IMG/VR virus record: IMGVR_UViG_3300046007_005839
Span: 1 to 58,610 of that record
Strand: one strand, 5' to 3'
DNA: 58,610 nt
From: a virus
Taxonomy: Duplodnaviria; Caudoviricetes
The position numbers and the translations under genes were made by a program. Shown one piece after another: positions 2,518 to 58,480 of this stretch (position 1 is the first letter of the stretch; every line of letters begins with the position of its first letter). The notes beneath the pieces are model-generated. The model ran no database searches and was not told the origin of the DNA. It worked only from the letters and a program-made list of their open reading frames with translations.

Positions 2518-2518
2518 A

Positions 2519-3757: not shown

Positions 3758-3762
3758 AATAT

Positions 3763-4095: not shown

Positions 4096-5306
4096 ACGGC
4101 TAGATAGGTTTTCTGGAGCGGACTGAAGATCCATCCAAATCCTTTGCCGTTGACATACCACTCAGCATGTGAGGTCATCGGTTTGATCAGAAGGGCATTC
4201 ACGATAGCACGCCAGACTTTGGAGGTCTGCATCTTAGGTACAAGGAAACGGCTCATCATGCGATAGCCTTCGCGACGCTGAGGAGTATAGTGCAGATCAC
4301 GCGACACACGCACGCTATCAGGAATGTTGTCCCAGCCGTAGAACGCCTCAGCGAAAGTCCAGCAGCAAGACGGCAACGAACCCATAACCTGCGTAAACTG
4401 ATCGAGACCCGTCTTGCGCTGAGCATTAATCTGATTCTCTTGCTGTCTCATTTGCGAAGCATTGCCGAACAGATTCATGCCCATCGCGTTAGACTCTTGA
4501 CCAACCTCACGCGCAGGTCCAGTACGAGACTCGCCTTGATTAACAGACGGGCGACCAGTCGTGAGCTGGAAGGTATCAATGCGCGATGACAAAGGTTGAA
4601 CAGCCCCAGCCGCAAGCTGAGCCGCATTCGCAATAGCACTCTGTCGCTGCTGCTTACGAGCCTCACCTGCGCCACCAAACGCCATAGCATTCGAGACAGT
4701 CGAAGTCGCCGTGGGAGTAGCGCCAGTGCCGCGCGCATAGTTCTCACGCGCAAGAGACCTATCAATCTCAGCGCGCTCAGCCCCGCTCAGTCCAGCGTTG
4801 GGATCCGTGAGAGAACCCTGAAGCTGTTCAAGATTCTGCAGCGCAAGTTCACGCGCACGATAAGCTTCAGGATCAGCTTCTTTCTGCGTGCGCATTGCCT
4901 CACGGACAAGCTCACGGCCCGTCCCGCTCACGATCCCAAGATCAGTCTCGGCTTGAGCTTGAGCATTCTGCCGGGCAATCTGAGATCCGATGCGCGCAAA
5001 CTCAGGTCCAAACTGCTGATACAGCTGCGCATTCAACGCCTGCTCACGCGGCGAAATCTCTTCGCGCAGCTTCTGCATCTCAGGCTCATACTGCCGAGCC
5101 GCAGCAACCTGCTGCTGAATCATCGGGATAATGTTCTCCCGATAAGCCTTCATGACCTCAGCCATCGACTCTTGTGTTGTCGGTGCCGGTGAACCTCCAT
5201 TAACAAAGAATCCCTTAGGAATCCCGTTGTCAACTTCCAGTCGCGTAGATTCCCAGACCATCGAGTGGCCGAGAACTTTAGAGAGATTAATCTCAAATGT
5301 GTTCAT
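3999..5306 (-). CDS. Putative internal virion/ejection protein with C-terminal CCWTFAEAFYG domain, variant A
   Basis: 435 aa, Gln/Ala-rich helical body. C-terminus resembles CFI-box-CTERM-type modules. Homologue at 53303-54610. Confidence 0.6.
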   Translation of the reverse strand: MNTFEINLSKVLGHSMVWESTRLEVDNGIPKGFFVNGGSPAPTTQESMAEVMKAYRENIIPMIQQQVAAARQYEPEMQKLREEISPREQALNAQLYQQFGPEFARIGSQIARQNAQAQAETDLGIVSGTGRELVREAMRTQKEADPEAYRARELALQNLEQLQGSLTDPNAGLSGAERAEIDRSLARENYARGTGATPTATSTVSNAMAFGGAGEARKQQRQSAIANAAQLAAGAVQPLSSRIDTFQLTTGRPSVNQGESRTGPAREVGQESNAMGMNLFGNASQMRQQENQINAQRKTGLDQFTQVMGSLPSCCWTFAEAFYGWDNIPDSVRVSRDLHYTPQRREGYRMMSRFLVPKMQTSKVWRAIVNALLIKPMTSHAEWYVNGKGFGWIFSPLQKTYLAVWEHYGARAGVPAEAYNLRLASGPWNFGIYPR

Positions 5307-5668
5307 TGTTTGATAAAATCTGAAACTCTGTATTGTACGTTTTGCTTACTCTTGCGCCGCGCCCCACTCACGGTCCAGCCGGGATAAAGCGCCTGCCAAG
5401 CAGACACTGCATTAAACAGACAGCCTCGGTCGCCAAGAATATTTAAGATGTGAATGTTTTTGCGCTCAAGGTCTAACTCGCACCATAGCGCAACCAAAGG
5501 GGTTTCGTTCTCTTTCTCAAGAACAAAGAGTTCAGTGTTTTCGCTCTTGAGAATTCGATCACAATGCATGATTATATCAATGTCAGAAGCCTCTCCGAAC
5601 GTAGCCTCGCGGCCAGGATGCCGCAAGACCCATTCGAAAAGCTTAATCGCATTGATACAAGAACTCAT
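5303..5668 (-). CDS. Hypothetical protein (GNAT-like/tail assembly position), variant A
   Basis: 121 aa, overlapping both neighbours by 4 bp. Conserved in copy B (54607-54972). Confidence 0.6.
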   Translation of the reverse strand: MSSCINAIKLFEWVLRHPGREATFGEASDIDIIMHCDRILKSENTELFVLEKENETPLVALWCELDLERKNIHILNILGDRGCLFNAVSAWQALYPGWTVSGARRKSKQNVQYRVSDFIKQ

Positions 5669-8211: not shown

Positions 8212-9194
8212 AGGTTTCGAACTCCTCCTTGCACGAGCGGCCACACTGGGAACATGATCGCAGCATCTTGCGCGGCATGACGCTCAGTCTGCACCATAAG
8301 CTCAGTGCCGCTTTCAAGATTCTCACACACGCCCTTACAGATCTCAGCCATCACTTGCTTGCTTGCCTCAGCGACATCCATCTTTTCTTTTTCGAAAGCA
8401 TAGATGTACTTAACGCCATAGACCAACGCTTGCACGAGACGCTCGTCAGTCCAGATCGAATTAAGGTTGGCAAAGGGCGAGAAGCGTTGCTTATAGAGAA
8501 CCTCTACGCAATCTTCGCCGAGAATAAACGGAGTGCCTGCATTCCAATCAAGGATCTGCACGCGGATGTTTGAGGCGTATAGTTGATTGTTTGCGATGCG
8601 TGCAACTTCAAGCTGAGTCGCAGCCATGCGCACGATCACGTCGCTGTTGGTGTAAGCTGACTTCTTGATCGACGTAATGCCGAACGGGCTTTCTGGCTCG
8701 AACAGATTGACGGAGGTCTTAACGAGATCGCCGGGCGTAAAGGTTATGACTTCGGTTGTGTTCGCCGCGAGAGAAGTCTGGCCGTTGATGATGATGTCAA
8801 ACGGCTGCGTCTCTATCGCATTGATCTGAAAAGTCAAAGGCCCCGCGTTGGTCAGCGGGGTATGTAGCGGCGTGGCTGAGATCTGTCGCCATTGTAGATA
8901 AGGCTGCGTCCAAGGCACACCGTGATAACGCGGCCTCATGTCTCGCGTGGTCACGAGGCGCGACGAATCATGCCAGCGAACGCCTCTTATGGCGCCCACG
9001 TACCACGGAAACGTGATAACGTGTTTGTTATTGTCTACGCAGAAAAACTGCTCAAACACAGAACCGGGCAAATCATATTGGTCATAGATCATTACGGCCG
9101 CGCGGTTTAGCCACGCGAGAACTTGAGCTTCTTTATCGCGAGAGTCTGGAAGAACTCCAATCGTCTCGGAAACTTGTTGGATGAGGGAGTTCAT
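8205..9194 (-). CDS. Putative head-tail adaptor/tubular-A-like protein, variant A
   Basis: 329 aa, directly upstream of the nozzle gene. N-terminal helices LIQQVSETIG...LAWLNRA are typical of adaptors. Confidence 0.55.
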   Translation of the reverse strand: MNSLIQQVSETIGVLPDSRDKEAQVLAWLNRAAVMIYDQYDLPGSVFEQFFCVDNNKHVITFPWYVGAIRGVRWHDSSRLVTTRDMRPRYHGVPWTQPYLQWRQISATPLHTPLTNAGPLTFQINAIETQPFDIIINGQTSLAANTTEVITFTPGDLVKTSVNLFEPESPFGITSIKKSAYTNSDVIVRMAATQLEVARIANNQLYASNIRVQILDWNAGTPFILGEDCVEVLYKQRFSPFANLNSIWTDERLVQALVYGVKYIYAFEKEKMDVAEASKQVMAEICKGVCENLESGTELMVQTERHAAQDAAIMFPVWPLVQGGVRNLW

Positions 9195-9197
9195 AGA

Positions 9198-10379
9198 TTA
9201 GGCAGCTTTCATGGCGTAAAGACGCAGACGCCATTTATTTGGTACATTGATCGCATGATACGCTCCAGTAGTTTTATCACGAATTACAACATGACCTCCG
9301 TAAGTTTTAGTAACTTTAACAAAAGTGCTGGTAACGTAAAACATAAAAGCTGTAGTAAAATCACTACTAGCATCTAATGCAAGTTCCTGAGCATCAATTT
9401 CATCACCGTTTACGTAGTTAGCGTCATTAGACTCACAACGCAATACAACACGAAACATTAAAGGCATTGCGCCCAGTGTATGATTTAATGTAGTCGAAGA
9501 ACCTGCAGTGTCTACATAAGTTCCTAATGACCCAACATCAGTAACATACTGCACGATTGTTCCAGCAACCGTCGTAGGCGCAACCCAATCAGGAACGCCT
9601 CCGACTTTACTCAACAAATAACCATCAGGAATTCCCGCAGATTCAATTTTAATGGGCGCAACTGTACCATTTTGCAACTTGCCGCCGCTCAGCGTGTCAT
9701 TGAGCATATCTACATTCGGCTCAAGAAAACGCCATCCTGCAAAAGTGTCACCTATACGGCCAGTAAGAAACTTACTACGCGTAGTAGCTCCCGGCGCAGG
9801 CGATAATAAATCAGTGGGAATTGAACCATCAACCAAATCATTGATGATAGTTTGTGACGTATACCAATTTGCCAAGCCTGGTCCAAACGTGCCTGCAAAA
9901 CGCCATTGCCCAACGGGAATGCCCGTCGTGATCAACGAACCAACTGGAATAGATCCCGCCGTAACGAGAGAAGAAAGAGAAACAAACTCAAAGCCAGTCA
10001 CACCTGCATTAACGCGAATGAGTTGATTCGCTGCGCCACCGGCGACAGACAACTTAGCCAACGTCACGGCGTTATTCTGAATCATCGCCGTCGTGATCGA
10101 GTTCGGGCTGATGATGTCGTTTATGTTGACCCAGCCCGGCGACGAAGTCTTGTAGACGTAAAGAGCTGGCTCAGCGGGATTCGCTAAACTCAACCACAGA
10201 CAAGTCTTACGCCACGCATTCGACCCCGTTACGTCGGGCGCCGTGGTGTCAAACAGGATCATGCCATACGTCGACGACGGAATGGCCTGTCGGATAAGTT
10301 GCAACAGCACGCTGGCATATCCGCCAAACGTACTCGTTGGGTCGATGCCTTCGACAAAAGGGTTAGTGTTTAGAGCCAT
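9198..10379 (-). CDS. Tail fibre-like protein
   Basis: 393 aa with NSITTAMIQNNAVTLAKL-type fibre repeats and a C-terminal HTLGAMP (H-type lectin-like) segment. Confidence 0.65.
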   Translation of the reverse strand: MALNTNPFVEGIDPTSTFGGYASVLLQLIRQAIPSSTYGMILFDTTAPDVTGSNAWRKTCLWLSLANPAEPALYVYKTSSPGWVNINDIISPNSITTAMIQNNAVTLAKLSVAGGAANQLIRVNAGVTGFEFVSLSSLVTAGSIPVGSLITTGIPVGQWRFAGTFGPGLANWYTSQTIINDLVDGSIPTDLLSPAPGATTRSKFLTGRIGDTFAGWRFLEPNVDMLNDTLSGGKLQNGTVAPIKIESAGIPDGYLLSKVGGVPDWVAPTTVAGTIVQYVTDVGSLGTYVDTAGSSTTLNHTLGAMPLMFRVVLRCESNDANYVNGDEIDAQELALDASSDFTTAFMFYVTSTFVKVTKTYGGHVVIRDKTTGAYHAINVPNKWRLRLYAMKAA

Positions 10380-17302: not shown

Positions 17303-17315
17303 ATCCTTGAATTTT

Positions 17316-17332
17316 AGCTGTCAGGTTGCCAA
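17316..17332 (-). promoter_or_regulatory. sigma-54-type -24/-12 promoter (tail fibre)
   Basis: Minus strand TTGGCAACCTGACAGCT = GG-N10-GC. Intergenic, just downstream of a terminator. Confidence 0.65.
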
Positions 17333-17372
17333 TCCTAGATTGGGTTGCTTTTTAGGGTCATGTTATAACTCC

Positions 17373-17402
17373 AAAAAGCAACCCACTCTTTCGAGTGGGC
17401 TG
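17373..17402 (-). terminator. Intrinsic terminator of the capsid operon
   Basis: Minus strand CAGCCCACTC-GAAA-GAGTGGGTTG-CTTTTT. Confidence 0.85.
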
Positions 17403-17408
17403 GTTGTA

Positions 17409-25195: not shown

Positions 25196-25212
25196 AGCTT
25201 TTAAGATGCCAG
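25196..25212 (-). promoter_or_regulatory. sigma-54-type -24/-12 promoter (late operon/terS)
   Basis: Minus strand AAGT-CTGGCATCTTAAAAGCT = GG-N10-GC. Shares AAGTCTGGCAT with the capsid promoter. Confidence 0.8.
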
Positions 25213-25312
25213 ACTTAAATACACTTTTAAAGGCTAAAATTTTACAAAAATCTGTGTGCATGCATGTTCGGACATTCGCAAAAAAGTTCGGGTCTTTCTT
25301 GTGCGTGTCGGG

Positions 25313-25462
25313 GATACGTAGGAGTGTGATGCATTGAGCTGTGATGGGTAGAACATGGATGCATAGGAGTGTGATGCATTGAAGAGGGATGCATTGGAGT
25401 CTTAGGGATAGAAGTGCAAGGAATTGCGCTGTGATGCATTGCAGAGGGATGCATTGAGGTGC
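25313..25462. repeat. Degenerate 15-bp tandem array (GATGCATWG-type units)
   Basis: GATGCAT at 25328, 25358, 25373, 25388, 25433 and 25448, with degenerate units at the intervening 15-bp positions. Confidence 0.9.
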
Positions 25463-25774
25463 TATGTAAATAGCGTTTGCTTCGTGAAGCCTCGAATACA
25501 CAAAACGGGGTCAGGCGATTTTGGGCTTCTTTCCTTTTCAGCCTCAATAACGTATTTCTGGGGGCGTTGAAGTTGTCATATGTTATTTTAAATATTTTTT
25601 TATAGTGTTAACTCCTTCATATTGTATTAAGTGTATTTTTTTGTTTTTTTTCTCTTAATATGGTATTTGACCTAAAACAAAGATAAGCACAAAATTATAA
25701 AACCCCATTTTGTGTATTTCCTACCCTTTTCCTAACTTTTAACTAAAAAACTACCTAAAGAATTTTCTTGCCTA

Positions 25775-25816
25775 TTTTGAGAATTACAAGCGTTTTTTGA
25801 GATTTACAAGTGTTTT
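25775..25816. repeat. 20-bp direct repeat x2
   Basis: TTTTGAGAATTACAAGCGTT / TTTTGAGATTTACAAGTGTT. Confidence 0.8.
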
Positions 25817-25892
25817 GCTGGCTTGTAGGGCATTAGAAAGTCTTTAGTGTTTTTTAGGTTAGATTAGAGTTTCTTATAGTTTTTCTTTAAGG

Positions 25893-25920
25893 TTGACTCT
25901 TTTGGAGTTTTCTTTAGTAT
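25893..25920 (+). promoter_or_regulatory. Possible sigma-70-type early promoter
   Basis: TTGACT-16 bp-TAGTAT upstream of the first + strand gene. The AT-rich context makes a chance match possible. Confidence 0.3.
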
Positions 25921-25980
25921 TCCCGTTTTTTACTTAAAAACGAGGCTTTTGGCGTACTTAAAAGGCTTGTCAAGTTAAGG

Positions 25981-26012
25981 TTAGGTTACGATTAGGTTAC
26001 GATTAGGTTACA
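25981..26012. repeat. 11-bp tandem repeat x3
   Basis: TTAGGTTACGA TTAGGTTACGA TTAGGTTACA. Confidence 0.85.
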
Positions 26013-26271
26013 TTTTGGGTTTTTGATTGACCGTTTTCGGCCCATAGAGTCTAGTCGTCACCGTCAGTCTTTGTTCTTTTCCGAAAACACGTTAGAGCCT
26101 TGTGGGATTCTTTCCCACCGGACTCGTTTTGTAGTGTTTTTACAGAATCCTTTGTTTTTGAATCTCTTTTGATTCAACGGGACAAGTCATATTTATTTGT
26201 GTGTGTTAGGTTCACTCTTTGATTTATTCAAAGTGTGAAGTTAAAAACTAAAACTAAAACCTAATACTAAA

Positions 26272-26643
26272 ATGCAAAACAAAAACAACACTACCGTCAA
26301 TGTCACCGTCATTCCTTTTGTGCGCGACTTGGTTTCTTTGTGCGCGATTCACCCTGCCGATTTTGTTAGAGAGATTGGCAAGGCTGAGAGCCTCAAGGAT
26401 ACAGCCAAGGCTGTTGGTATCAGCAAAGGCTCTGCGATTGGTCCTATCGTGCGTAATAGCTTCGCCAAGGGAACGCATAAGAGTGTGATTGAAAGCGAAA
26501 CTGCCCGATGGGAAGCCTTGAGCGGAATCGCCAATGCCTTTGGAGTGCGCTTAAATTCCTTGCTGCGGGCCTGCGAAGTTCAGACTGGTAGCAGCATGCA
26601 AGAACGCCTTAACGCTCTTCCTGAGGCTCCGGCAAAGGCTTAA
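26272..26643 (+). CDS. First early gene, hypothetical (possible HTH)
   Basis: 123 aa. SLKDTAKAVGISKGSAI is HTH-like. A-rich leader. Confidence 0.65.
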   Translation: MQNKNNTTVNVTVIPFVRDLVSLCAIHPADFVREIGKAESLKDTAKAVGISKGSAIGPIVRNSFAKGTHKSVIESETARWEALSGIANAFGVRLNSLLRACEVQTGSSMQERLNALPEAPAKA

Positions 26644-26654
26644 ACGGTAACACT

Positions 26655-27605
26655 TCACACTCTCCCGTGTTATGCGGGAGAGTGAACCTAGCACACACAA
26701 GCCCGGTTTAGATAATACAAAAAACCGGATTCAATAAAAGCATAGCGTGCCTTTGTGACTAACACTCCAAAGGAACGGCAATAATTCTTTAGAAGTAGCG
26801 TGAAGCTATTAAGGCAAAGTGTAAATTGCTTTAAGAGTCTAGGTAAATCGGTAGAAACGCATTTAACCTAGTAGCGGGAAAAGCTAAAGTGTTAAGAGAA
26901 ACACTAGAGAATCGGACAAAGTAGCTTTGTGGACATTGAATCCCTTTTGTTAAAGTAGGAATATTAAACCGGTTTTCTTTGTTTAATGTTAAGACCTTAA
27001 AATCAAACGCATTTACCAAAGAAACGTTAGAAGTTCAACTTACAAATTGCGGGATTTACTCGCGATTCTTCCTTGCGTGAATAGGAAAGGCTTTTGTTAG
27101 TAGTCTTTGTGAGGTTGTCTAGGTTCTACGATAGAACGAACCGATTAAATGCGGGACAACCAACCAAAGAAACGAAAACAAAAGCCCAATAGTCTTTGAG
27201 ACTAGTTTGCTTGGCTAGGCAATAGACCGGAAGCAAACTAAAAACGTGTTAGGTGCAACGCCTAATGACGGCTCTTTGCGTTAACCTTCCTTTGGTTTAA
27301 GAAACTGTCTAAAGGATTTAACATGACAGAAACGCAAAAAACAAAAGACTCTTTGTAGGTTACCATTGGTAGCTTGCCCAATGAAATAACCTCAAAAACT
27401 AAATCAAAAGCCTTGCGCTATTGCCTTGTCTTTTACAAGGAACTACAATAGGTGACTCGCAAGGCTTTTGCATTTAGTCTTTGCTTTGTAGTGTTGCGCA
27501 TTATCCACAACGCAATATCCACGTTTATAAATAACTCTATTCGAGTCTTCTCTTTCTTCAAACTATCCACACACTACAAGGCAAAGACTAGATGCAAAGT
27601 CTAGT
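26655..27605 (+). ncRNA. Candidate large structured non-coding RNA
   Basis: ~950 nt with no + strand ORF in the track, near-continuous hairpins and several long-range stems (see findings). Strand is inferred from flanking genes. Confidence 0.55.
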
Positions 27606-27613
27606 TCTTTGTT

Positions 27614-27844
27614 ATGCCCAAAACATACACCCAGAAAAAATTTGACAGATTTAACTCTGTCAATTTAGGCAAATACTTTGCCTCGAAGCAATCCAAAATG
27701 CACAAGCAACTTGTGCCTTTGTCAAAGCGCAACGCCAAGAAAGACAAGCAATCTGTCCACAAGGCAAAGGCTTGGCTCTGCCATAAACCAAGTGTCTCAC
27801 GTATTGTGAGAGCGACTGAGAAAAGTAAAATTGATTGGATTTGA
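27614..27844 (+). CDS. Basic hypothetical early protein
   Basis: 76-aa Lys-rich ORF at the head of the early gene run. Confidence 0.5.
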   Translation: MPKTYTQKKFDRFNSVNLGKYFASKQSKMHKQLVPLSKRNAKKDKQSVHKAKAWLCHKPSVSRIVRATEKSKIDWI

Positions 27845-27849
27845 TATTT

Positions 27850-27957
27850 ATGAAACAAAGACAGAAAGATGAATTGATTCTTATTATCGTTGGCTCTGTC
27901 ATATTGTTGACAGCGCTTTATTACTTTATCAAAGCCATCGTGGGCTTTGATAATTAA
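27850..27957 (+). CDS. Small single-TM protein (35 aa, not in ORF track)
   Basis: MKQRQKDELILIIVGSVILLTALYYFIKAIVGFDN fills the gap between neighbouring genes. Confidence 0.55.
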   Translation: MKQRQKDELILIIVGSVILLTALYYFIKAIVGFDN

Positions 27958-27968
27958 ACAACAAACAT

Positions 27969-28283
27969 ATGAAAATTACACTAGACAAACAAGAAGCCGA
28001 AAGATTGTTGTCTCATTACTTCTATCTCAAGCTTGACGAAGATGTCAAAGTTGAGATCTCCGACATGGAGCCTATTCGTGAGGTTCACGCCGTAACATAC
28101 ACGAGCCTTATGGTGCAAGATCTCTGGTCTGACCTTATGCAGCCATCGGACAAAGACGAAAGACTTGGGCCTGTGAAGATTCGCATGATGAAGCTCTTCA
28201 TGGGCTTGCATCTCAAGCTAACAGGTTATCCTTGCAGTCTTATTAACGCCAAGAACTTTATTGAGAGTCATAAAGCTTTTTAA
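27969..28283 (+). CDS. Hypothetical early protein
   Basis: 104 aa with AAACATATG start context. C-terminal SLINAKNFIE resembles L7/L12-CTD-like phage proteins. Confidence 0.7.
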   Translation: MKITLDKQEAERLLSHYFYLKLDEDVKVEISDMEPIREVHAVTYTSLMVQDLWSDLMQPSDKDERLGPVKIRMMKLFMGLHLKLTGYPCSLINAKNFIESHKAF

Positions 28284-28287
28284 TAAT

Positions 28288-28545
28288 ATGAACTGTGAAG
28301 ATTATCCATGCTGCGGCCATGAGCCGGGCGGTTGTCCTATTGTAGATCAGAATGGCGTTGCGCGTTATTCTTGTGCAACTTGTGGAGTTCTTATGCCTCC
28401 AAAGGCAAGGAGTGCCGTCTGTGAGCCTTGTCACAAGCGCTGGGCATTTGAGGAGTTCTCCGACGAGATGCCAGACAAGTATTATGAAGACGAGCCATCT
28501 GATTCTGACACAGGATGGGATTTAGGAAAGGAAGAAAGTTTATGA
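28288..28545 (+). CDS. Cys-rich (Zn-binding) hypothetical protein
   Basis: CEDYPCCGH...CATC...CEPC. Confidence 0.7.
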   Translation: MNCEDYPCCGHEPGGCPIVDQNGVARYSCATCGVLMPPKARSAVCEPCHKRWAFEEFSDEMPDKYYEDEPSDSDTGWDLGKEESL

Positions 28546-28802
28546 CAAATCGTTGCTTACGTTGTTTACAAATCATCGACAGCGATCGCAAAGCATTAGG
28601 CTTTGATCGCTGTATCAAATGTGCGCCACAATGGCAATACAAAGGCGCTCTCAACTTCGGCCACAAAACAGGCGGCTCTGTGCAACCAATGCATCCTGAT
28701 GCTTTTAAGGTGCATAAGCGTGTGACACATCGTTCTGCAAAAGGTACGAATGGCCGTGCTTTTCAGCAAGGTACTTGCGTAATCACAATAAAAGATGCAT
28801 AA
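28542..28802 (+). CDS. Zn-finger hypothetical protein (DksA/TraR-type C4-like)
   Basis: CLRC-QII--DR-ALG--RCIKC spacing. Confidence 0.6.
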   Translation: MTNRCLRCLQIIDSDRKALGFDRCIKCAPQWQYKGALNFGHKTGGSVQPMHPDAFKVHKRVTHRSAKGTNGRAFQQGTCVITIKDA

Positions 28803-28805
28803 CAT

Positions 28806-28979
28806 ATGATCATCATAATCCCATCACACATAAAGGGTTTCTACTCTTATTGTCTCGCGCCGGTTAGTTATACATTAGATGTTCATATCTACATACAGAA
28901 GCTCTTTGCAGAGAATCTTTTGTTTGTAGATTTCAACCTTACACAAGAAGAGATAGGCCAGATTCTCGGAGGTAATTGA
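28806..28979 (+). CDS. Small hypothetical protein (57 aa, not in ORF track)
   Basis: AACATATG start. Open to TGA at 28979, directly before the terminator. Confidence 0.45.
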   Translation: MIIIIPSHIKGFYSYCLAPVSYTLDVHIYIQKLFAENLLFVDFNLTQEEIGQILGGN

Positions 28980-28981
28980 GT

Positions 28982-29035
28982 CTCCACAAAGCACAAGCCC
29001 TTTAAGGAGGGCTTCTTTTTGTGGAGCTTTTTTTT
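28982..29035 (+). terminator. Intrinsic terminator of the early cluster
   Basis: CTCCACAAAG..AAGCCCT-TTAAGG-AGGGCTT..TTTGTGGAG followed by T8. Confidence 0.8.
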
Positions 29036-29051
29036 GTTGTCAAGAAATAAC

Positions 29052-29068
29052 TTGGCACTTCAAGAGCT
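29052..29068 (+). promoter_or_regulatory. sigma-54-type -24/-12 promoter
   Basis: TTGGCACTTCAAGAGCT = GG-N10-GC, just after a terminator and upstream of 29179. Confidence 0.75.
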
Positions 29069-29826: not shown

Positions 29827-29861
29827 TTTGTAGGAGTAATCAAAATACTCAACAAACAACA

Positions 29862-29900
29862 GAGCCTCTGTGGGAGCAATCTCACAGAGGCTTTTTCTTT
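29862..29900 (+). terminator. Intrinsic terminator
   Basis: AGCCTCTGTGGGA-GCAA-TCTCACAGAGGCT followed by TTTTCTTT. Confidence 0.85.
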
Positions 29901-29939
29901 AAGGTGTTCCAACTTTTGGCATCCCACAGGTGCCAAAAT

Positions 29940-29956
29940 TTGGCATACTTTAGGCT
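29940..29956 (+). promoter_or_regulatory. sigma-54-type -24/-12 promoter (rpoN/replication operon)
   Basis: TTGGCATACTTTAGGCT = GG-N10-GC, 34 bp before the rpoN ATG. Preceded by two more TTGGCA half-sites in alternating orientation. Confidence 0.65.
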
Positions 29957-29989: not shown

Positions 29990-31282
29990 ATGAAATTCTC
30001 TCTCTCAATAAATCAAACTCAGAGTCTTATTCTGAGTCCACAACTCCAGCAATCTCTCGCGCTTCTACAAGCTCCTCTCTGTGAGCTTCATACCCTGATG
30101 GAGTCTTTCGTCGGAGATAATCCGTGCGTTGAACTCCTTGACCGAGAGATGCCTGAAGAAGAGATCTTGTTTAGGAATGACAAAGCAGAACTTCCACAAG
30201 ACATGCAGTGGACTTCTTCTTATAACCTTCCACCCAAGGAAGAATATCCGTTGGAGAATAACCCATCGCGCGGAGAGACTCTTGAAGAATACCTTGAGAG
30301 GGAATTGACAATCGCTTCTCACGATACGAGCATCATCCATCTACTCGACGAGCGGGGATTCTACATGGGCGATCTTGATAGCCTCACAACCCCACAAAGA
30401 GATGCTTTGCGTTTTATCCGCACTCTCGAACCAAAAGGCCTAGGCGCTTTGGGATTAGCAGATTGTCTTTGTCTCCAGCTAGATGAGAACTCACTAGCCT
30501 ATCGCATTCTTCAACAAGACGAAGACTTATTCACGCGCCGTCAGATTCCTCTCTTAAGCAAAAAATACAACGAGACCTTCACGACCATAGAGAATCTTTA
30601 CAAGTCTCTAGCAAAGCTTAAATACAACCCAGCCATAGAGTTCTCTGCCCCAACGCACACGCCAAAAGATCCAGAGATCTTTCTCGACAAAGATCTCACG
30701 ATCACGATCCCGAACGAGCGATTGCCTGTCTACAAAATCAATCAAGGCTATCTAAACTATCTCGATAAGCTCTCGCCGCAAGACAGAGAATACATCCGAG
30801 AGCGCGTAAAGCAGGGGAAGTTCTTGATTCGCTCGATCATGCAGAGGCAAAGCACTTTGTTTAATGTCACAAAGGCGATTGTAGATTATCAATCTGAGTT
30901 CTTCAAAACCGGAAATATCAAGGATCTCAAGCCTCTCATCATGGCGCAGATCGCCCTCGTGTGTGAGATCCATGAGACCACTGTCTCCCGCGCGGTCCAT
31001 AACAAATACATAAGCACACCAAAAGGGACATATGAACTTCGCTTTTTCTTCACCAGCGCAATCATCAACCATGAACAAAACACCATGCAGAGTAACCTAA
31101 GCATTAAGAATCAGATCGCAGAGATCATCTCGCGAGAGGACAAGTCTCGCCCTTTGAGTGATGAAGATATCGTTGTCCTATTAAAGAACACCATCGCTCG
31201 CCGCACAATCGCCAAATACAGAGCCGAACTAGGCATTCAACCATCTCACTTAAGAAAAGTCTATGCCTCCTCTTCAAAATGA
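29990..31282 (+). CDS. rpoN: RNA polymerase sigma-54 factor (phage-encoded)
   Basis: Region I LSPQLQQSLALLQ, core-binding LDERGF and LEPKGLGA...CLCLQL, HTH IHETTVSRAVHNKY, PLSDEDI, and RpoN box ARRTIAKYR. Confidence 0.97.
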   Translation: MKFSLSINQTQSLILSPQLQQSLALLQAPLCELHTLMESFVGDNPCVELLDREMPEEEILFRNDKAELPQDMQWTSSYNLPPKEEYPLENNPSRGETLEEYLERELTIASHDTSIIHLLDERGFYMGDLDSLTTPQRDALRFIRTLEPKGLGALGLADCLCLQLDENSLAYRILQQDEDLFTRRQIPLLSKKYNETFTTIENLYKSLAKLKYNPAIEFSAPTHTPKDPEIFLDKDLTITIPNERLPVYKINQGYLNYLDKLSPQDREYIRERVKQGKFLIRSIMQRQSTLFNVTKAIVDYQSEFFKTGNIKDLKPLIMAQIALVCEIHETTVSRAVHNKYISTPKGTYELRFFFTSAIINHEQNTMQSNLSIKNQIAEIISREDKSRPLSDEDIVVLLKNTIARRTIAKYRAELGIQPSHLRKVYASSSK

Positions 31283-34935: not shown

Positions 34936-35092
34936 ACAATACGTTAGTAAATACAAACTCGGCTCGCTCGACGAGGAGTATCTTAACAGAGAAGAGATGG
35001 CCGCCGCGCGCAAGGCTATCATGAATTACAAACTAAAAGATCCCGGGCCGTCTTTGTATAGAAAGAAACCTAAGAATAAAAAGAAAAAATGA
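34910..35092 (+). CDS. Small basic hypothetical protein
   Basis: 60 aa. Its stop overlaps the ATG of the activator gene. Confidence 0.6.
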   Translation: MSKFHQRGEQYVSKYKLGSLDEEYLNREEMAAARKAIMNYKLKDPGPSLYRKKPKNKKKK

Positions 35093-35937
35093 ACATCCAC
35101 GCAAACGTCCTTAACACCGCAGCCGCCGACAGCTTCCTCGATAACATCCGCAAGGATGTCCTCAAGATCACAGGCGATGCGCTGAAAGATAGCAGTATCC
35201 ACAACGTCGCATCATGCTATGCCACGCAAGACCCAGCGACTAAGAGAATGCTCACGGCCGCAATAACCTACGCCGAAGAGAGCCTTCAGAAATATAACGT
35301 CTTGATTGAGGGACCTTCAGGTACGGGTAAGGAGTTAGTTGCAAAGATCCTTGCCCACAAACGCAAGCCTCTAAAGGCTATGAACATGGCTGGCTTGACT
35401 GATACACTCTTTCAAAGCGAGCTCTTTGGCTACATGCCCGGTGCATTTACCGGCGCTAAATCAAGAGGCGACGTGGGCTTTCTCCGTGCAGTCGGCAAGG
35501 GCACTGCTTTCCTCGACGAGATAGGCGAGTTGCCATTGGCACATCAAGCAAAGTTGTTGCGTGTGTTGCAGGATAAAACCGTATTGCCCGTCGGGGCTGT
35601 TGATCCTGTGCCGATTCAATGTAGGTTTGTCTTTGCGACAAACAGAGATCTCCTCAAGATGGTAAAAGAGGGGAGCTTCCGAGAGGATCTTTACTTCCGA
35701 ATCAACGAACTCGGACTGAAGACTTTCTCTCTACAACAAAGAGGTGTGCAGGAAATCCGCTGTGTCGCCTCGGCGATTATCACAGAAGAAAACTGGACAC
35801 CTCTCGGCGAAAGGGAACACTTCGGCGACGAGACATTCTCCTTTGGGAATGTACGGGCGCTGAGAAACTTGCTACTCAAACGTGAACTTGGGGAACTAGA
35901 ACTACCTGAATATGAAACCTTTAACAAACTTGACTAA
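35089..35937 (+). CDS. Sigma-54 activator (bEBP AAA+ domain only)
   Basis: GPSGTGKE, SELFGYMPGAFTGA, FLDEIGE, LLRVLQ, ATNRDL, FREDLYFRI and GNVRAL. No receiver/GAF domain and no C-terminal HTH. Confidence 0.97.
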   Translation: MNIHANVLNTAAADSFLDNIRKDVLKITGDALKDSSIHNVASCYATQDPATKRMLTAAITYAEESLQKYNVLIEGPSGTGKELVAKILAHKRKPLKAMNMAGLTDTLFQSELFGYMPGAFTGAKSRGDVGFLRAVGKGTAFLDEIGELPLAHQAKLLRVLQDKTVLPVGAVDPVPIQCRFVFATNRDLLKMVKEGSFREDLYFRINELGLKTFSLQQRGVQEIRCVASAIITEENWTPLGEREHFGDETFSFGNVRALRNLLLKRELGELELPEYETFNKLD

Positions 35938-40200: not shown

Positions 40201-40461
40201 ATGAGCATTGAAACTATCGCACCTGTCGCATCTAACTTACCTTTCGTAGAAAAGGAACGCATCGACATTCGACTCTGCCTCACAATCAAGCGTAACCCAC
40301 AGACGGGCGAGACTAAAGCATATGTCAATCAACTAGACCTCACTAACTATGATGGTCTTGTTGATAATGTTCCTGAGTTCCTTAACGCATTTGAATTAAG
40401 GTACGGTATAAATCAAATCATATCGGCCGCAAAGAATCATCTATCAAACGTGGCCCAATAA
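40201..40461 (+). CDS. Hypothetical protein
   Basis: 86 aa from the ATG at 40201. Confidence 0.6.
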   Translation: MSIETIAPVASNLPFVEKERIDIRLCLTIKRNPQTGETKAYVNQLDLTNYDGLVDNVPEFLNAFELRYGINQIISAAKNHLSNVAQ

Positions 40462-40514
40462 AAGCTCCCTCCCATTTGTCGGTGCTAGTAAACAAAACAA
40501 AAAACAAAACAAAA

Positions 40515-41187: not shown

Positions 41188-42618
41188 ATGATAGCCCTCG
41201 TTCTCCATGGACCTTCGCGATTTGATAAAGAAAACAACGGTATCCTTCTCGGACCCGCCGGAGATTTTGTTCGTTCTGTGTTGGCTAATTATAATATTGA
41301 CTTGGATAATCCATCTGATCTTTTTATAACATTCGCAGATGATTTTTTCAAAGGAGCCAATAAGCCAAGCGGCATCAAGAAGATAATCTTCGCCGGGGCC
41401 AAAGCCTTAGATTATCTCCCGCTTGCGAAAGGTAAATCTCTCGATGCTTTTCGCGGCGTCGTCTATCTCTCTCCAAACAAAACACAATACATAGTAACCT
41501 ATTGGCCCCAAGATTGTGTGGACGCGTGGGCTATGGAAGATTCTTTGGAAGATGCCTTAGAAGGCGAAGACATCCTAGATAAGGATGATGGAAAAAGCAC
41601 AAGCCCCACGAAGCGCAGTAACTACTCTTTCTGGTTCGCACAAGACATCAAGAAACTCCTAACTTATGACCCCGAAAAAGTTCAACCTGAACCCCAAACC
41701 GTCATCTGTCAACGCGCCGCCGAATGCACAAGTGTCTTCGACTTCGAAGGTCCAATCTTCTTCGACATTGAGACCCATCCAAAGACCAACACACTCACCT
41801 GCTTGGCCATTGCGTGTGGCGAGAGTCCTGTCTATTCTGTTCCTGTGTATGATTGGGGCGGCAATCTTAATGTCGGTGTGGTTTTCTTTGCTCGCTTCAT
41901 TAGAGAACTAAAGAAACGCCGTGTCGTAATCCACAACGCCCTCTTCGACCTATGCTTCCTCGCCGCCTTCTACAAGATCCCTTTCGGCCATGACATCTAT
42001 GACACCATGGTCGCAGGCCATCGAATCTTTCCGGAGGCTGAGAAGTCTCTGGCCCATCAAGCCACTCTTTACAGCAACAGACCCTTCCATAAAGATGAAG
42101 CAGGAAACTTTGATCCTCGCAATCGAGCACAATTTGAGCAGCTCCGCGCTTACAACGTTAAAGACGTTATTGTCCTCCGAGAAATTTACTATGGTCAAAT
42201 TAACCTCATCCGAAACGACGCTGGACTTCAAGACTCTGTCGATCAAGCCAGTCGATCTCTCGCAGACTACGCCTTCATGTCCCTCCACGGAATGCACTTC
42301 GATCCTGTCAAGCGCGGATACATCGTACGACGCTGCGAAGAACGCTATAAGCAGTTAAATAGAATCCTCAAAATCCTCGTCGGCTTCGACCTTAATCCCG
42401 GCAGCCCGGATCAGGTCGTGAAGTATCTGCATCAGCAGTTAAGATACAAGCCCGAGAAAACAACAGACAAAGGCGCGCCGAGTGTCGCCGGGGATGCGCT
42501 TTATAAGATCAAACTCAAGCATCCGAAGAACGTCGCCATCGACGTAATCTTCGAGATGCGTCGTATGGTTAAGCTGAAAGGTATGTTAGGATTTCAACAG
42601 TGGATTTGGGAATATTAA
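41188..42618 (+). CDS. DNA polymerase A, N-terminal part (UDG-like domain, 3'-5' exonuclease, thumb)
   Basis: LHGPSRFD...LGPAG...AGAKA...RG...TYWP (UDG family-4-like), FDIET (ExoI), HNALFD (ExoII), YNVKD (ExoIII), LNPGSPDQV (thumb). Confidence 0.85.
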   Translation: MIALVLHGPSRFDKENNGILLGPAGDFVRSVLANYNIDLDNPSDLFITFADDFFKGANKPSGIKKIIFAGAKALDYLPLAKGKSLDAFRGVVYLSPNKTQYIVTYWPQDCVDAWAMEDSLEDALEGEDILDKDDGKSTSPTKRSNYSFWFAQDIKKLLTYDPEKVQPEPQTVICQRAAECTSVFDFEGPIFFDIETHPKTNTLTCLAIACGESPVYSVPVYDWGGNLNVGVVFFARFIRELKKRRVVIHNALFDLCFLAAFYKIPFGHDIYDTMVAGHRIFPEAEKSLAHQATLYSNRPFHKDEAGNFDPRNRAQFEQLRAYNVKDVIVLREIYYGQINLIRNDAGLQDSVDQASRSLADYAFMSLHGMHFDPVKRGYIVRRCEERYKQLNRILKILVGFDLNPGSPDQVVKYLHQQLRYKPEKTTDKGAPSVAGDALYKIKLKHPKNVAIDVIFEMRRMVKLKGMLGFQQWIWEY

Positions 42619-42622
42619 GTTT

Positions 42623-43471
42623 ATGACAAAAGATACAAAAGAAAAAGACCCACAAATCGCCGCATCCTTTATGCGCGCTGGGATTTATGACGCCTCGAAG
42701 TTCGGCCACGTGGTCTCGATGCCCAAGCTGAATGGCCTGAGGTGCATGTACATTCCCGGTCAAGGGTTTTATTCAAGAGATGGCAAGCGGTGGAATGATG
42801 CTGTCTTGGAAGGTATCTTTCCGCCGCCGCTTAACGACTATATTATCGACGGCGAGCTATACTGCCATGGCATGAGCCTGCAGAAGATCAATGCCGCCGT
42901 GGGCGTAAATCGCATTCTGCCCGGCGAGGACGCAAAGCATATCAGTTTCTATGCGTTCGATATTGTAGAGCCGAAGTACAATGCTCTTACGAGAATGCTC
43001 TTGCTTGAGAAGATCATCAAGGAATCTACTGGCGTCGGCGTAGAAATGATTCCGTGGTCTATTTGCAAGACTCGCATTGAACTCGACGAGTGTTACGAAG
43101 AATATCTCAAGCAACAATTCGAAGGCCAAATGCTCAAGAGCGTCTTCGGTTCGTATATGCCTCAAGGCACAAAGGAACGCTCGACGATGAATCTCCAGAA
43201 GCGCAAAGCCTTCCTCGACGACGAGTTCCAGTGCATTGGGCGCGTCGTCTCTGACGAAGGCAAGTGCAAAGGCAAACTAGGCGCGCTTAAGTTCATCACC
43301 AACAGAGGCGTAAGCTTTGAAGTAGGCACAGGCTTCACCGACGAAGAGCGTGAGGAATTCATTACCCCAAATTATCACTTCCAAAAGAAAGCAACAATCA
43401 AATATCTAAACCTCACCGACGACGGTCGCCCGTTCAATGCGTCGTTTGTCGGATGGCGCGATGACGTTTAA
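42623..43471 (+). CDS. ATP-dependent DNA ligase
   Basis: PKLNGLRC, IDGELY, YAFDI, EGQMLK and OB-fold VGTGFTDEER. Confidence 0.9.
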   Translation: MTKDTKEKDPQIAASFMRAGIYDASKFGHVVSMPKLNGLRCMYIPGQGFYSRDGKRWNDAVLEGIFPPPLNDYIIDGELYCHGMSLQKINAAVGVNRILPGEDAKHISFYAFDIVEPKYNALTRMLLLEKIIKESTGVGVEMIPWSICKTRIELDECYEEYLKQQFEGQMLKSVFGSYMPQGTKERSTMNLQKRKAFLDDEFQCIGRVVSDEGKCKGKLGALKFITNRGVSFEVGTGFTDEEREEFITPNYHFQKKATIKYLNLTDDGRPFNASFVGWRDDV

Positions 43472-43483
43472 TCTCCCAAAAAT

Positions 43484-44026
43484 ATGTTCACAAAAAACCT
43501 ACCCAAGCATCTCTACCTAAACGTAGACACAGCTTTCACACATAAACATAAGCAAGGCTACATGCCTGCGATATGGTTCGCCATAACCTCAACGCCCGGC
43601 CGCGCATGGGGCTGTCATGTATTGCTAGAGAACGGAGCGATCTATCGCAACCTTCCGCTCCATGCGCTATACTTCGGCTCTGATATACTCCCCAGCGAAT
43701 GGCCTCTTGAACAATCTCAACGCTGGGATTGCTATGGTTGGAACTTCGAGACCATTGAGTACACTTATCTTCGCAGCCAGCGTTGTATGGCTAATTGCGA
43801 TGGTGACTATTATCACGGCGACTATCTCTTCACCGCCGCGCCCTTCGACGACGGCTTCAGTGACGATCCCGAGCAAAACAAAGAGTTCCTCTTTATCAAG
43901 CTCGACAACGGGCGCATCACCGCACAGCCCACGAATAAAGTCATGATCCTCGACGATAGCTTTCACAAAGCTATGGACTGGCCATCGGATCTGAAAGTCT
44001 CTAAAGAGGTTTATTCTTGCGAATAA
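43484..44026 (+). CDS. Conserved phage hypothetical protein
   Basis: 180 aa with GAIYRNLPLHAL...QRWDC...LDNGRITAQPTN. Confidence 0.8.
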   Translation: MFTKNLPKHLYLNVDTAFTHKHKQGYMPAIWFAITSTPGRAWGCHVLLENGAIYRNLPLHALYFGSDILPSEWPLEQSQRWDCYGWNFETIEYTYLRSQRCMANCDGDYYHGDYLFTAAPFDDGFSDDPEQNKEFLFIKLDNGRITAQPTNKVMILDDSFHKAMDWPSDLKVSKEVYSCE

Positions 44027-44028
44027 CT

Positions 44029-45021
44029 ATGCCCACTCCACACATCCACTGCCTGACCTCGCTTAAGGTCGCCGGGACAGGAAGCTTTCGTCTAGCCTCT
44101 GGACAATTCCTAGGCGACTACGGAGCGAATCTCCAGAATCCCGACAAAGAAGCTCTCGATATCTACATCGCCCCGCCGGGGATGACATTCGTACAGTGCG
44201 ATCAAAGCGGCGCCGAGGCTCTTATCGTCGCCAACCTTACGCGACCGGGGCGTTATAGAGAACTCTTCAACGTGGGCATCAAACCTCATACCTTCATCGC
44301 GCTGCATATCTTCTGCGAGCAGATGCAGAACGAATGGCCTCTCGCGGGGAAGTCGCCGAGTTATTGGAAAAGCTTAAGTCCGACAGAACTCAAGAAAGAC
44401 CCCGATTGGAAACCTCTCGACAAAGCAATCAAATCCTCCGACAAGGAATACAAGATCGGCAAGATGGTCTGCCATGCTTCCTCCTACAGAATGCGTGAGC
44501 GGACCTTTCAACTTCAAACCCTCAAGCAGAGTCATGGCACTCTTACCCTCAGTCTCCAAGAATGCAAAGTCTTCCTTGGCTTCTTCGCGTCACTGTTTCC
44601 CGAAATCATAGAATGGCAAGATGAAATTGAATTTCAGATTAGAACTAACCGTCAGCTCCGTAATCTGTTTGGATATCCACGCAGGTTCGAGCGTACTATT
44701 ACTGACTCTTATATCAGGGAAGGCATCTCGTGGGTTCCTCAGTCCACCGTGGGCTGTATCACACACCTCGCAGTCAACCGCTATAACAACGAGCGACCGC
44801 TCAAAACATTACCGGCGATTAACAATAAACATGACTCTTTTCTGGCGCTGGTTCCAGATGGGATTGTCAACGACACGGCGAAGCTCATGCAAGAATGCCT
44901 CGCGATCTCACTTACCGGCCGAGACGGAGTGAACTTCACCATGAAATCTGAGGCCCAAGCTGGAAAGAACTGGGGTAAGTATTTAAAAGAGAATCCCAAC
45001 GGCATGAGAGACCTCGCCTAA
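44029..45021 (+). CDS. DNA polymerase A, C-terminal polymerase domain
   Basis: RLAS...NLQN, motif A DQSGAEA, motif B KMVCHASSY, PQST and motif C HDS. Confidence 0.9.
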   Translation: MPTPHIHCLTSLKVAGTGSFRLASGQFLGDYGANLQNPDKEALDIYIAPPGMTFVQCDQSGAEALIVANLTRPGRYRELFNVGIKPHTFIALHIFCEQMQNEWPLAGKSPSYWKSLSPTELKKDPDWKPLDKAIKSSDKEYKIGKMVCHASSYRMRERTFQLQTLKQSHGTLTLSLQECKVFLGFFASLFPEIIEWQDEIEFQIRTNRQLRNLFGYPRRFERTITDSYIREGISWVPQSTVGCITHLAVNRYNNERPLKTLPAINNKHDSFLALVPDGIVNDTAKLMQECLAISLTGRDGVNFTMKSEAQAGKNWGKYLKENPNGMRDLA

Positions 45022-45051
45022 ACTCGGCCCAAGAAAAGCTCCCTCCGCTTT

Positions 45052-51820: not shown

Positions 51821-51825
51821 ATAAA

Positions 51826-53061: not shown

Positions 53062-53066
53062 AATAT

Positions 53067-58477: not shown

Positions 58478-58480
58478 AGA

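Follow-up and report, generated by a model that had tools for sequence, protein, structure and literature searches.

Genes and features at the locus

The DNA described here, referred to as the window, is a stretch of 58,610 bp which makes up one whole virus record of IMG/VR (IMGVR_UViG_3300046007_005839, Caudoviricetes), and the element in question is a block of about 950 nt at positions 26655-27605, situated between two small genes named P0001 and P0002. Leftward genes, including those of the large terminase and of structural proteins, are located left of 25.5 kb and rightward genes right of 26.27 kb, and the peak of the cumulative GC skew as well as the divergence of the two gene arms coincide with the location of the block, a region in which the GC content drops to 0.37-0.43. 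The rightward arm codes for small early proteins, sigma-54, a helicase, a sigma-54 activator of the AAA+ type, a nuclease, a split family-A polymerase, a ligase and a primase-helicase. The block is non-coding, non-randomly folded, kept by compensatory change and under purifying selection, and it is unlike any Rfam family. It likely acts as RNA, and a probability of about 0.5 may be given to the reading that it is a folded non-coding part of the rightward early RNA, acting mainly in cis.

When open reading frames (ORFs) of at least 70 amino acids (aa) are counted on either strand, positions 26644-27600 (957 nt) form the largest ORF-free gap of the record, followed by 25548-26253 (706 nt), all remaining gaps being of 203 nt or less; the short ORFs within the block do not exceed 62 aa. 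A sequence-only reading of the window had pointed to an ORF-free region of about 950 nt densely tiled with stems. The gap is indeed there, and all of the stems which that reading listed were found again, each where it had been placed or a few bases off (Table 1).

Folding, homologues and covariation

The minimum free energy (MFE) of the block on the + strand is -289 kcal/mol, compared with -220.5 +/- 7.5 in 20 dinucleotide shuffles (z -9.11), and the reverse strand gives a z of -7.04; the block folds far better than its shuffles. Folding was also scanned in 200-nt frames, 230 of them over positions 1-46000 with 8 shuffles each. On the + strand 22 of the 230 frames had z values at or below -3, and the longest run of such frames, the only one of more than two, consists of the five frames covering 26601-27600 (z -3.2, -3.7, -4.3, -4.7 and -10.0). 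The structured zone exceeds the coordinates of the block, beginning at about 26060, within the leader that precedes P0001, and the structured part of the putative early transcript amounts to about 1.2 kb. The scan also brought up strong folds (z down to -10.7) at 17303-17408 on the - strand and at 28995-29040 and 29861-29894 on the + strand; these are ordinary, namely canonical hairpin-plus-T-run terminators which directly precede promoter-like sequences of the unit that follows.

Twenty IMG/VR loci encode a sigma-54 which is 75-98% identical to that of the window, and only part of these loci contain the block. Two scans of IMG/VR with DNA words gave the same five contigs. A pattern scan of metagenome contigs gave eight stretches, among which four are true homologues (L035 with its identical copy L038, and L037 and L040), adding one new type; the other four (L033, L034, L036 and L039) shared just a word of 18-21 nt and were dropped as chance matches. 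After copies and identical contigs of L009, L019, L035 and L013 had been left out of the alignments (L010, L021, L038, L040 and L024-L032), the set called type A comprised five distinct sequences: the window, L009, L013, L019 and L035. Over the block the four relatives are 81-88% identical to the window.

RNAalifold applied to the type-A alignment predicts 274 pairs, 52 of them compensatory. A strand-neutral set was made up of the 224 pairs predicted on both strands, with 97% of the cells paired. Both sides had changed in 51 of the 224 pairs, whereas 500 column shuffles gave 24.7 +/- 3.2 and never reached 51 (0/500), and six slid controls, in which the partners were shifted by 1-3 columns, gave 2-7. 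At least one such pair occurs in 22 of the 31 helices. Covariation among homologues, which the sequence-only reading had proposed as a check, is present. Whole hairpins can be replaced with pairing retained, as in AAGGCAA/TTGCCTT versus ATCTTAG/CTAAGAT, and likewise in the inner module at 27097-27195. Relatives exchange modules with breakpoints at the boundaries of hairpins, a pattern more in keeping with a row of semi-independent stem-loops than with a single globular fold. The hairpins differ from one another and no family of repeated elements was found among them.

The small ORFs of the block were tested for coding, and none of at least 35 aa is common to the five sequences. Substitutions in the block have no 3-base periodicity (largest phase-to-mean ratio 1.06-1.50 in 16 frames, versus about 1.9 in P0001), while the sigma-54 genes, like P0001, show the codon periodicity. 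Identity to the window is 82-88% in paired columns of the block and 79-89% in unpaired ones, and it is 45-71% at third codon positions of P0001 and 49-58% at those of the sigma-54 genes. The block is as constrained as first codon positions, loops and stems alike, and in a core of 136 nt the mean column identity reaches 96% in the five sequences. A covariance model of this core, named R1, gave six matches, exclusively on the + strand and all of type A (the five training sequences and L037, a copy of the L009 type).

Rfam 15 at gathering thresholds has no matches in the whole record, nor in the loci of six relatives (93.8 kb); when hits with E up to 10 were admitted for 25400-28000, there were two, of 14-16 bits against thresholds of 43-50, none of them within 26655-27600. 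The families without a match include GOLLD, ROOL, 6S, RNase P, tmRNA, group I and II introns and ribozymes. ARAGORN called no tRNA or tmRNA genes in the record, which together with the Rfam result agrees with the sequence-only reading, where no hallmarks of tRNAs or of group I or II introns had been recognised. A blastn search of 26200-28000 against GenBank phages gave no match. The block is very probably a new family among the large structured RNAs or leaders of phages.

A sister element at the same place

In seven relatives, with sigma-54 75-90% identical to that of the window, the same place is occupied by a non-homologous ORF-free gap of 470-810 nt, here called type B. This block is also hairpin-dense, with 130 predicted pairs of which 62 are compensatory. 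By blastn, types A and B share short flanking matches only, and the core model R1 gave no match in type-B loci among the 22 sources searched. The swapped module, roughly 25.72-27.83 kb, takes in the small ORF upstream of the block, and this ORF is completely different between the types. Nevertheless there are common features. In both types a terminal stem encloses a G-poor loop with short repeats and a tract resembling AGTCTTCYCTTT, and a hairpin with a GGATTTAY loop, like that of 27045-27067, is also found in type-B blocks. The terminal stem of type B is 23-25 nt long and 96% complementary in L007, L016 and L011, with the ATG of the P0002 homologue within its 3' arm, and it occurs in two sequence variants with 9-10 compensated differences. 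The seven type-B gaps hold 0 or 1 TATCCAC-like site each, and their loops carry TATCCTC/TATCCTAC or GTCTTCTCT repeats. A folded block of 470-950 nt is kept in all 12 examined relatives which reach this far upstream.

Table 1. Features of the block and its surroundings in the order of the + strand; the last column gives pairs changed on both sides in the type-A alignment.
Feature	Position	Strand	Description and basis	Pairs changed on both sides
Candidate sigma-70-type promoter TTGACT-16 nt-TAGTAT	25893..25920	+	Consensus scan, 9/12 matches; first-hexamer TTG, spacing and second hexamer (TAGTAT/CAGTAT/TAGAAT) kept in 5/5 type-A sequences	
GTTAC-N6-GTTAC-N6-GTTAC, 11-bp period, iteron- or operator-like	25979..26012		Downstream of the candidate promoter; kept in 5/5 homologues	
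5' leader hairpins	26060..26196	+	GAAAACAC/GTGTTTTT at 26083-26141; TTGAATC/GATTCAA at 26158-26177	2 and 3, respectively (RNAalifold, A4)
5' arms of the long-range helices around P0001	26197..26240	+	Ha 26197-26218; Hb 26231-26240	Ha 6/23 (RNAalifold)
P0001, gene of 123 aa, the 'loop' inside the long-range stem	26272..26643	+	Codon-position differences	
3' arms of the long-range helices	26652..26700	+	Hb 26652-26661; Ha 26679-26700; overlapped by the local hairpin CACTCTCCCG/CGGGAGAGTG at 26658-26684	
Domain 1	26703..26972	+	Four stacked closing helices around a multi-hairpin junction (helices 2-12): 26703-26709/26966-26972, 26717-26722/26944-26950, 26727-26735/26935-26942 (GGATTCAAT/ATTGAATC), 26741-26746/26924-26929	Closing helices 3, 4, 5: 2, 1, 2
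136-nt core, most conserved part	26781..26916	+	Closing stem ATTCTTT/AGAGAAT and five hairpins; hairpin loops GTGAA, AGTGTAAA, CGGTAGAAACGC, GGGAAAA, AAGAGA	5/8 in one hairpin wholly replaced in L009 yet pairing
Hairpin 26974-27024 and three small hairpins	26974..27087	+	Including 27045-27067 with loop GGATTTACT	Helices 13-16: 3, 1, 4, 1
Domain 3	27089..27186	+	GGCTTTTGTT/AACAAAAGCC (27089-27098/27177-27186) around three nested helices; inner part a swappable module, different in L009 and L035 with pairing retained	Helices 17-20: 0, 4, 3, 3
Hairpins	27203..27392	+	TAGTTTGCT/AGCAAACTA; GTTAGG../..CCTAA; TTTGCGTT/AACGCAAA (two nested hairpins); AGGTTACCATTGG/CCAATG..AACCT (predicted on the + strand only)	Helices 21-26: 4, 0, 0, 3, 3, 2
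Composite 24-bp hairpin (12 + 6 + 6 bp)	27406..27469	+	Helices 27-29, 100% paired; perfect 13-nt repeat arms 27405-27417/27458-27470; overlaps promoter-like TTGCCT-17-TACAAT	2, in the apical helix
Terminal long hairpin	27467..27598	+	25-28-bp stem (99% paired), 76-nt G-poor loop; 28-nt repeat arms 27467-27494/27571-27598, 93% complementary; loop with TATCCAC x3 (27502, 27516, 27564), a CU-rich tract and a nested covarying 4-bp hairpin 27534-27546; 15 nt from hairpin end to P0002 ATG	Stem (helix 30): 2; helix 31: 3/4
P0002, 76 aa, very basic, predicted helical	27614..27844	+	First gene past the block	
First downstream terminator-like hairpin with T-run	28995..29014	+	Probable end of the early unit	
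Sigma-54 promoter-like sites	17316-17330(-), 25196-25210(-), 29054-29068(+), 40452-40466(+), 45026-45040(+), 29941-29955(+)			

The upstream boundary of the block is interlocked with P0001. The 5' arm of helix Ha lies 55 nt before the start of this gene and the 3' arm just past its stop, and the helix spans 460 nt. In the window Ha is a 22-nt inverted repeat of 95% complementarity; in L013 the 22 nt are 100% complementary with a different sequence, and in L009 23 nt are 96% complementary. L013 also has its own perfect 10-nt pair of different sequence at Hb. Together Ha and Hb close P0001 into a loop by about 33 bp, leaving open the A-rich 30-nt leader of the gene. Since their 3' arms share positions with the local hairpin, alternative pairings are possible; this hairpin is itself compensated in L013 (CTTCTAAA/TTTAGAAG).

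RNA or DNA, and which strand

Judged from its sequence features, the block likely acts as RNA, and the + strand is likely the active one. A single-strand fold is favoured because the covarying helices are nested, branched and long-range (a domain of 270 nt, a span of 460 nt, a hairpin within a loop), arrangements which duplex palindromes or cruciforms should be unable to form, and palindromes bound by proteins would be expected to keep their sequence. As to the strand, the fold energy of the alignment is -254.6 on the + strand versus -241.4 on the - strand, the strand-neutral helices have 30 G-U cells (25 pairs) versus 13 A-C cells (12 pairs), and mismatch positions sandwiched in helices comprise 13 G-U and 2 A-C cells. 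Unpaired positions are A in 38-42% and T in 23-26%, and z is lower on the + than on the - strand in four of the five frames of the block. All genes which flank the block are on the + strand, and in L019 a + strand T-run terminator is inserted directly past it. The sigma-70-like promoter candidate at 25893-25920, kept among the homologues, also has this orientation. It can be said that these signs are several, weak and concordant.

Transcription of the locus was looked for in metatranscriptomes. One library contains nine contigs of an L035-like relative within the 12 kb that were compared, including two in the block (26769-26963; 27033-27097 with 27195-27375), one over the 3' end of P0001 and four at other places; in the second block contig, positions 27097-27195 are exchanged for 100 other letters. 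Contig depth cannot rank expression, and the parts of the 12 kb free of contigs are uninformative. The contigs are compatible with transcription, but they are unstranded, shallow and drawn from a run chosen with a bias.

A proposed folded leader within the early transcript

The proposal of a large structured non-coding RNA stands as regards the lack of coding, the dense pairing, the covariation, the selection and the absence of an Rfam family. No support emerged for a free scaffold, decoy or anti-defence RNA acting in trans. A cis-acting part of an early polycistronic transcript is preferred because the block has no terminator of its own, is interlocked with P0001 and ends in a stem that abuts the start of P0002. 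The array of hairpins was tested for intrinsic terminators, and no terminator-like hairpin was called on the + strand in 26655-27605. As canonical + strand terminators follow at 28995-29014 and 29861-29894, each then succeeded by a promoter-like sequence of the -24/-12 type, positions 25.93-29.0 kb would constitute one early transcript.

According to this reading, host RNA polymerase would start at the sigma-70-like promoter at about 25.9 kb and run to the T-run terminator at about 29.0 kb. The RNA would then consist of a hairpin leader, the 23 + 10-bp stem which loops out P0001, 950 nt with about 30 helices, and the 25-28-bp stem at the start of P0002. By analogy, the long near-perfect stems may serve as processing sites for a double-strand-specific RNase of the RNase III type, and cleavage at them would release a stable structured piece from the middle, with the message of P0001 on one side of it and the downstream message on the other. 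The terminal stem could gate translation of P0002, its G-poor loop offering a landing place for ribosomes in a phage without Shine-Dalgarno sequences; none was seen before the 40 start codons that were read. The conserved core and the loop motifs might bind a protein, possibly for polymerase read-through of strong terminators. The genes of sigma-54, its activator and replication lie past two strong terminators, and in L019 P0002 also lies past one; because the genes of the next phase are placed beyond strong terminators, a read-through role is plausible. P0002 could be the partner in the manner of lambda N, or the RNA could suffice alone in the manner of HK022 put.

We infer the RNA nature of the block, its strand, the ends of the transcript and every functional step, and several observations weigh against this reading. 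The MFEs of single sequences are near equal on both strands (e.g. -292.2 vs -291.8), and the good folding of the reverse strand was mentioned above (z -7.0). A looser helix census found only 48 G-T versus 29 A-C in type A and 29 versus 20 in type B, and the cells of common helices are 94% Watson-Crick and 2.7% G-U. An old RNA would be expected to show more G-U wobble, and the low level also fits DNA palindromes homogenised by template switching. The five distinct sequences are linked by a tree and by recombination, so that alignment cells are not independent events, and the swapping of modules together with the lack of detectable homology between types A and B speaks against a single precisely folded machine. 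The RNA-library contigs are unstranded and of depth 2-7, the run was picked by words from the block itself, and DNA carry-over is possible. The candidate early promoter is a consensus match only. The three TATCCAC motifs resemble DnaA boxes, one of them being a perfect TTATCCACA. Finally, RNase cleavage, translational gating and antitermination are analogies taken from lambda, T7 and rRNA operons.

Other explanations

The best of the alternatives, although a doubtful one, is a stand-alone large non-coding RNA acting in trans, that is a middle piece of about 770-900 nt with its own promoter or released by excision, which would accumulate early and bind a host or phage factor as scaffold, decoy or counter-defence. 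The 96% identity of the core in stems and loops, where neutral sites are about 50% diverged, would suit specific binding or tertiary contacts, and the flanking stems of 22-23 bp and 25-28 bp could be excision sites. The block is large and multibranched like known ornate phage-associated RNAs, and owing to the T-run terminator which lies past the block and a mini-ORF in L019, the upstream RNA can end there as a separate molecule. However, a closing terminator-like hairpin is lacking in the window and, judging by the alignment, in the other three relatives. No convincing internal promoter was found either: one 9/12 match (27421-27449) is inside a covarying hairpin. Bacteroidota-type promoters (TAnnTTTG), with 38 in the record against 28.6 expected and one in the block, within a hairpin, gave no support. 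On its 5' side the block interlocks with P0001, and replacement of the whole block in relatives is easier to understand for a cis element varying together with its neighbours than for an RNA adapted to a fixed host factor. An unlikely, more speculative variant is an RNA of a new class, above all its 136-nt core, which is excised from the early transcript at the flanking long stems and acts in trans on the host, for instance by sequestering RNA polymerase holoenzyme, an RNase or a defence sensor during the switch to the phage sigma-54 and its activator; type B would then be a convergent second solution.

A DNA-level element seems improbable. The block would in that case be a replication origin or a control region bound by proteins, its repeats working as palindromes, cruciforms or hairpins of single-stranded DNA, with DnaA at TATCCAC. 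Its position at the divergence of the gene arms and at the GC-skew peak, in DNA of low GC content, suits such a role, as does the folding of both strands with helices that are almost purely Watson-Crick. Three of the six TATCCAC of the record are at 27502-27570, in a cluster of DnaA-box-like 9-mers (TTATCCACA, ATATCCACG and CTATCCACA, within 27501-27570), and are kept in 5/5 type-A sequences, and AGTCTTTG is enriched, with 8 copies in the record versus 2.5 expected, 5 of them in 26066-27589. On the other hand the stems change freely with pairing kept and hairpins are wholly replaced, where protein-binding palindromes should keep their sequence, and nested, branched, covarying helices in the range of 250-460 nt would be impossible as duplex cruciforms. 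The boxes are not kept in the seven type-B gaps, the lean to G-U on the + strand and the A-rich unpaired bases point to RNA, and better iteron candidates (GTTAC x3 and an AT-rich tract) are situated outside the block at 25.6-26.0 kb. That gap, 25548-26253, holds a very AT-rich tract (25560-25720), a direct repeat of TTTTGAGAWTTACAAGYG (25775-25792 and 25795-25812) and the GTTAC repeats, all kept in 5/5 type-A sequences; they may represent operators of P0001, or the replication origin proper.

Functionless accumulation of hairpins in a tolerated spacer, by template-switch mutation or small palindromic selfish elements, is very improbable: template switching can make apparent compensatory changes in one step, and the helices are near-perfect, almost without wobble, with modules that come and go between relatives, but unpaired columns are 79-89% identical versus 45-71% at synonymous sites and the core 96%, a compact 49-kb phage keeps 470-950 nt in each of the 12 relatives, and the hairpins are mutually different.

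Comparable systems

Large ornate RNAs linked to phages are represented by GOLLD and ROOL (PMC12286853). The block resembles such RNAs in size (0.8-1 kb), in its many helices with multibranch junctions, in covariation and in phage or lake origin. The block is, as RNAs of the GOLLD and ROOL kind are, a covarying multi-stem structure of more than 500 nt, with 224-274 pairs of which 51-52 are compensatory. Unlike them it has no Rfam match and no nearby tRNA genes, it is not obviously a separate gene, and it is replaced wholesale between close relatives.

Among regulatory leaders, the early leftward leader of phage lambda has a length of about 200 nt and comprises nutL, a hairpin sensitive to RNase III and gene N. 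It is also a structured leader with a long hairpin which is followed by the gene of a small basic protein, and the block likewise belongs to the putative first operon of host polymerase, with strong terminators downstream. As with the N/nut modules of lambdoid phages, the leader and the N-terminal half of P0002 travel as a mosaic module. The hairpin GTAGC-GTGAA-GCTAT (26795-26809), with 5 bp and a pentaloop of the G-N-R-N-A type, recalls lambda boxB by resemblance only, and its loop is invariant in 5/5 type-A sequences. In contrast to the lambda leader the block has 950 nt and about 30 helices, the terminator of L019 precedes P0002 itself, and no similarity of P0002 to N, or to any Pfam or PDB entry, could be detected. 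Phage HK022 put, an antiterminator of RNA only with about 70 nt and two stem-loops, is another cis-acting folded RNA which early in a phage operon faces intrinsic terminators. The block is much unlike put in length and has no sequence or model match to it. In the arrangement of L019, where a terminator comes ahead of the next gene, the mechanism would have to be leaky or to work without a protein.

Stems cut by RNase III flank the rRNAs in bacterial rrn operons and lie between the early genes of phage T7. The 22-23 bp and 10 bp flanks of the block similarly close a whole unit, namely P0001, and near-perfect stems of 24-28 bp are also placed between cistrons. Inverted repeats of about 20 bp or more are present in several sizes (22-23 nt of 95-100%, 28 nt of 93% and the composite of 24 bp); these stems exceed the T7 sites in length and in perfection of pairing, and in contrast to rrn operons the enclosed unit is mRNA and not rRNA. 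As in ColE1 RNA II and origins with DnaA boxes, a fold of several hundred nt is found near DnaA-box-like motifs in a replicon with a family-A polymerase, however the boxes are missing in type B, and the block is upstream of protein genes and interlocked with them.

Large structured RNAs supported by covariation are rare, and new ones have tended to reveal unexpected biology. The block is strongly supported, from five sequences only, and has a defined site between the first early gene and the genes leading to sigma-54 and its activator, while at least two unrelated versions at one locus amount to a natural swap experiment. If the preferred reading of a cis-acting leader is true, the block would show how early expression is timed without Shine-Dalgarno sequences in a phage of a poorly studied freshwater host; if it is a released trans-acting RNA, it would be a new ornate RNA of phages, with a core of 136 nt that lends itself to structural work. 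Either way, folded RNA takes up about 2% of a 49-kb genome.

Neighbouring genes P0001 and P0002

P0001 is a coding gene, with differences by codon position of 23/14/62 between the window and L009 and similar values in all 10 pairs. Its family hints are weak: an XRE/CI-like assignment by Atlas (0.91), RHH_4 in 4/5 members with a best E of 0.03, and NUMOD1 in 3/5. A small DNA-binding regulator is probable from these sequence hints. The AF2 model (pLDDT 52, pTM 0.43) is too weak for fold comparison.

P0002 is conserved as a protein in both types, with an invariant SKR.AK.DK and a ..KIDWI end, and has homologues in 29 clusters, all of them unannotated. No Pfam or PHROG family was obtained for it at E up to 0.01 and nothing from Atlas, nor did it have a relative in PDB, the sole profile hit being a ribosomal protein with E 2.8; searches of PDB with the sequences of P0001 and P0002 were empty or meaningless. 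AF2 predicts three helices with pLDDT 70 and pTM 0.25, too weak for fold comparison. The protein is mosaic: its N-terminal and C-terminal halves each exist in two versions, the 14 members aligned show every one of the four possible combinations, and the halves recombine at the invariant SKR.AK.DK. L019 has an insertion of 175 nt (5327-5488) between the block and its P0002 homologue, which contains an ORF of 28 codons with two CxxC pairs and then a hairpin of 11 bp and TTTTTT abutting the next ATG.

The phage and its possible host

The ends of the record, 1-9317 and 49280-58600, are direct copies with an identity of 80.9% only. Because these 9.3-kb ends are alike at 81% and related phage genomes have 49-51 kb, the true genome is probably of about 49 kb (roughly a 49.3-kb circle or concatemer), and the record probably joins two related strains end to end, with no genuine 9-kb repeat.

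The runs in which DNA of the phage occurs are all from lake water, apart from one river RNA run, and eight DNA runs contained 84-100% of the words sampled from it. The best GenBank phage matches of the terminase are Akkermansia phages with 30% identity, and a 4.4-kb contig (L041) with a 78% identical sigma-54 relative is binned in a metagenome-assembled genome (MAG) labelled Phycisphaerales. The host is possibly a poorly studied freshwater bacterium of the Planctomycetota-Verrucomicrobiota group. The block was not found in that MAG, nor by BLAST in 401 genomes sampled from its phylum, where the sole match, of 23 nt with E 0.006 per genome, was taken as chance; the model R1 had no match in 151 of these 401 genomes.

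No GenBank phage record covered at least 80% of the phage sigma-54, and searches of the literature, as far as its texts were available, brought no description of the block or of a phage-encoded sigma-54 with an activator. The sigma-54 gene (29990-31282) is complete with all three Pfam domains, and upstream of it there is a palindrome, TTTTGGCA-N9-TGCCAAAA (29914-29938). The activator is an AAA+ protein of 282 aa encoded at 35089-35937. GG-N10-GC sites (TGGCA/C-N..-AGCT) directly precede several genes, among them the terminase operon and a structural gene of 526 aa. The sigma-54-type pattern was counted 11 times versus 8.8 expected, which is not above chance, and none of the 11 matches of GGC-N8-AGCT is within 25211-29053, hence none inside the block. 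The family-A DNA polymerase looks split: one ORF comprises the exonuclease and the beginning of the polymerase domain, the end of this domain falls in a second ORF, and between the two an ATP-dependent ligase and an ORF of 180 aa are located (ORFs 41188-42618, 42623-43471, 43484-44026 and 44017-45021).

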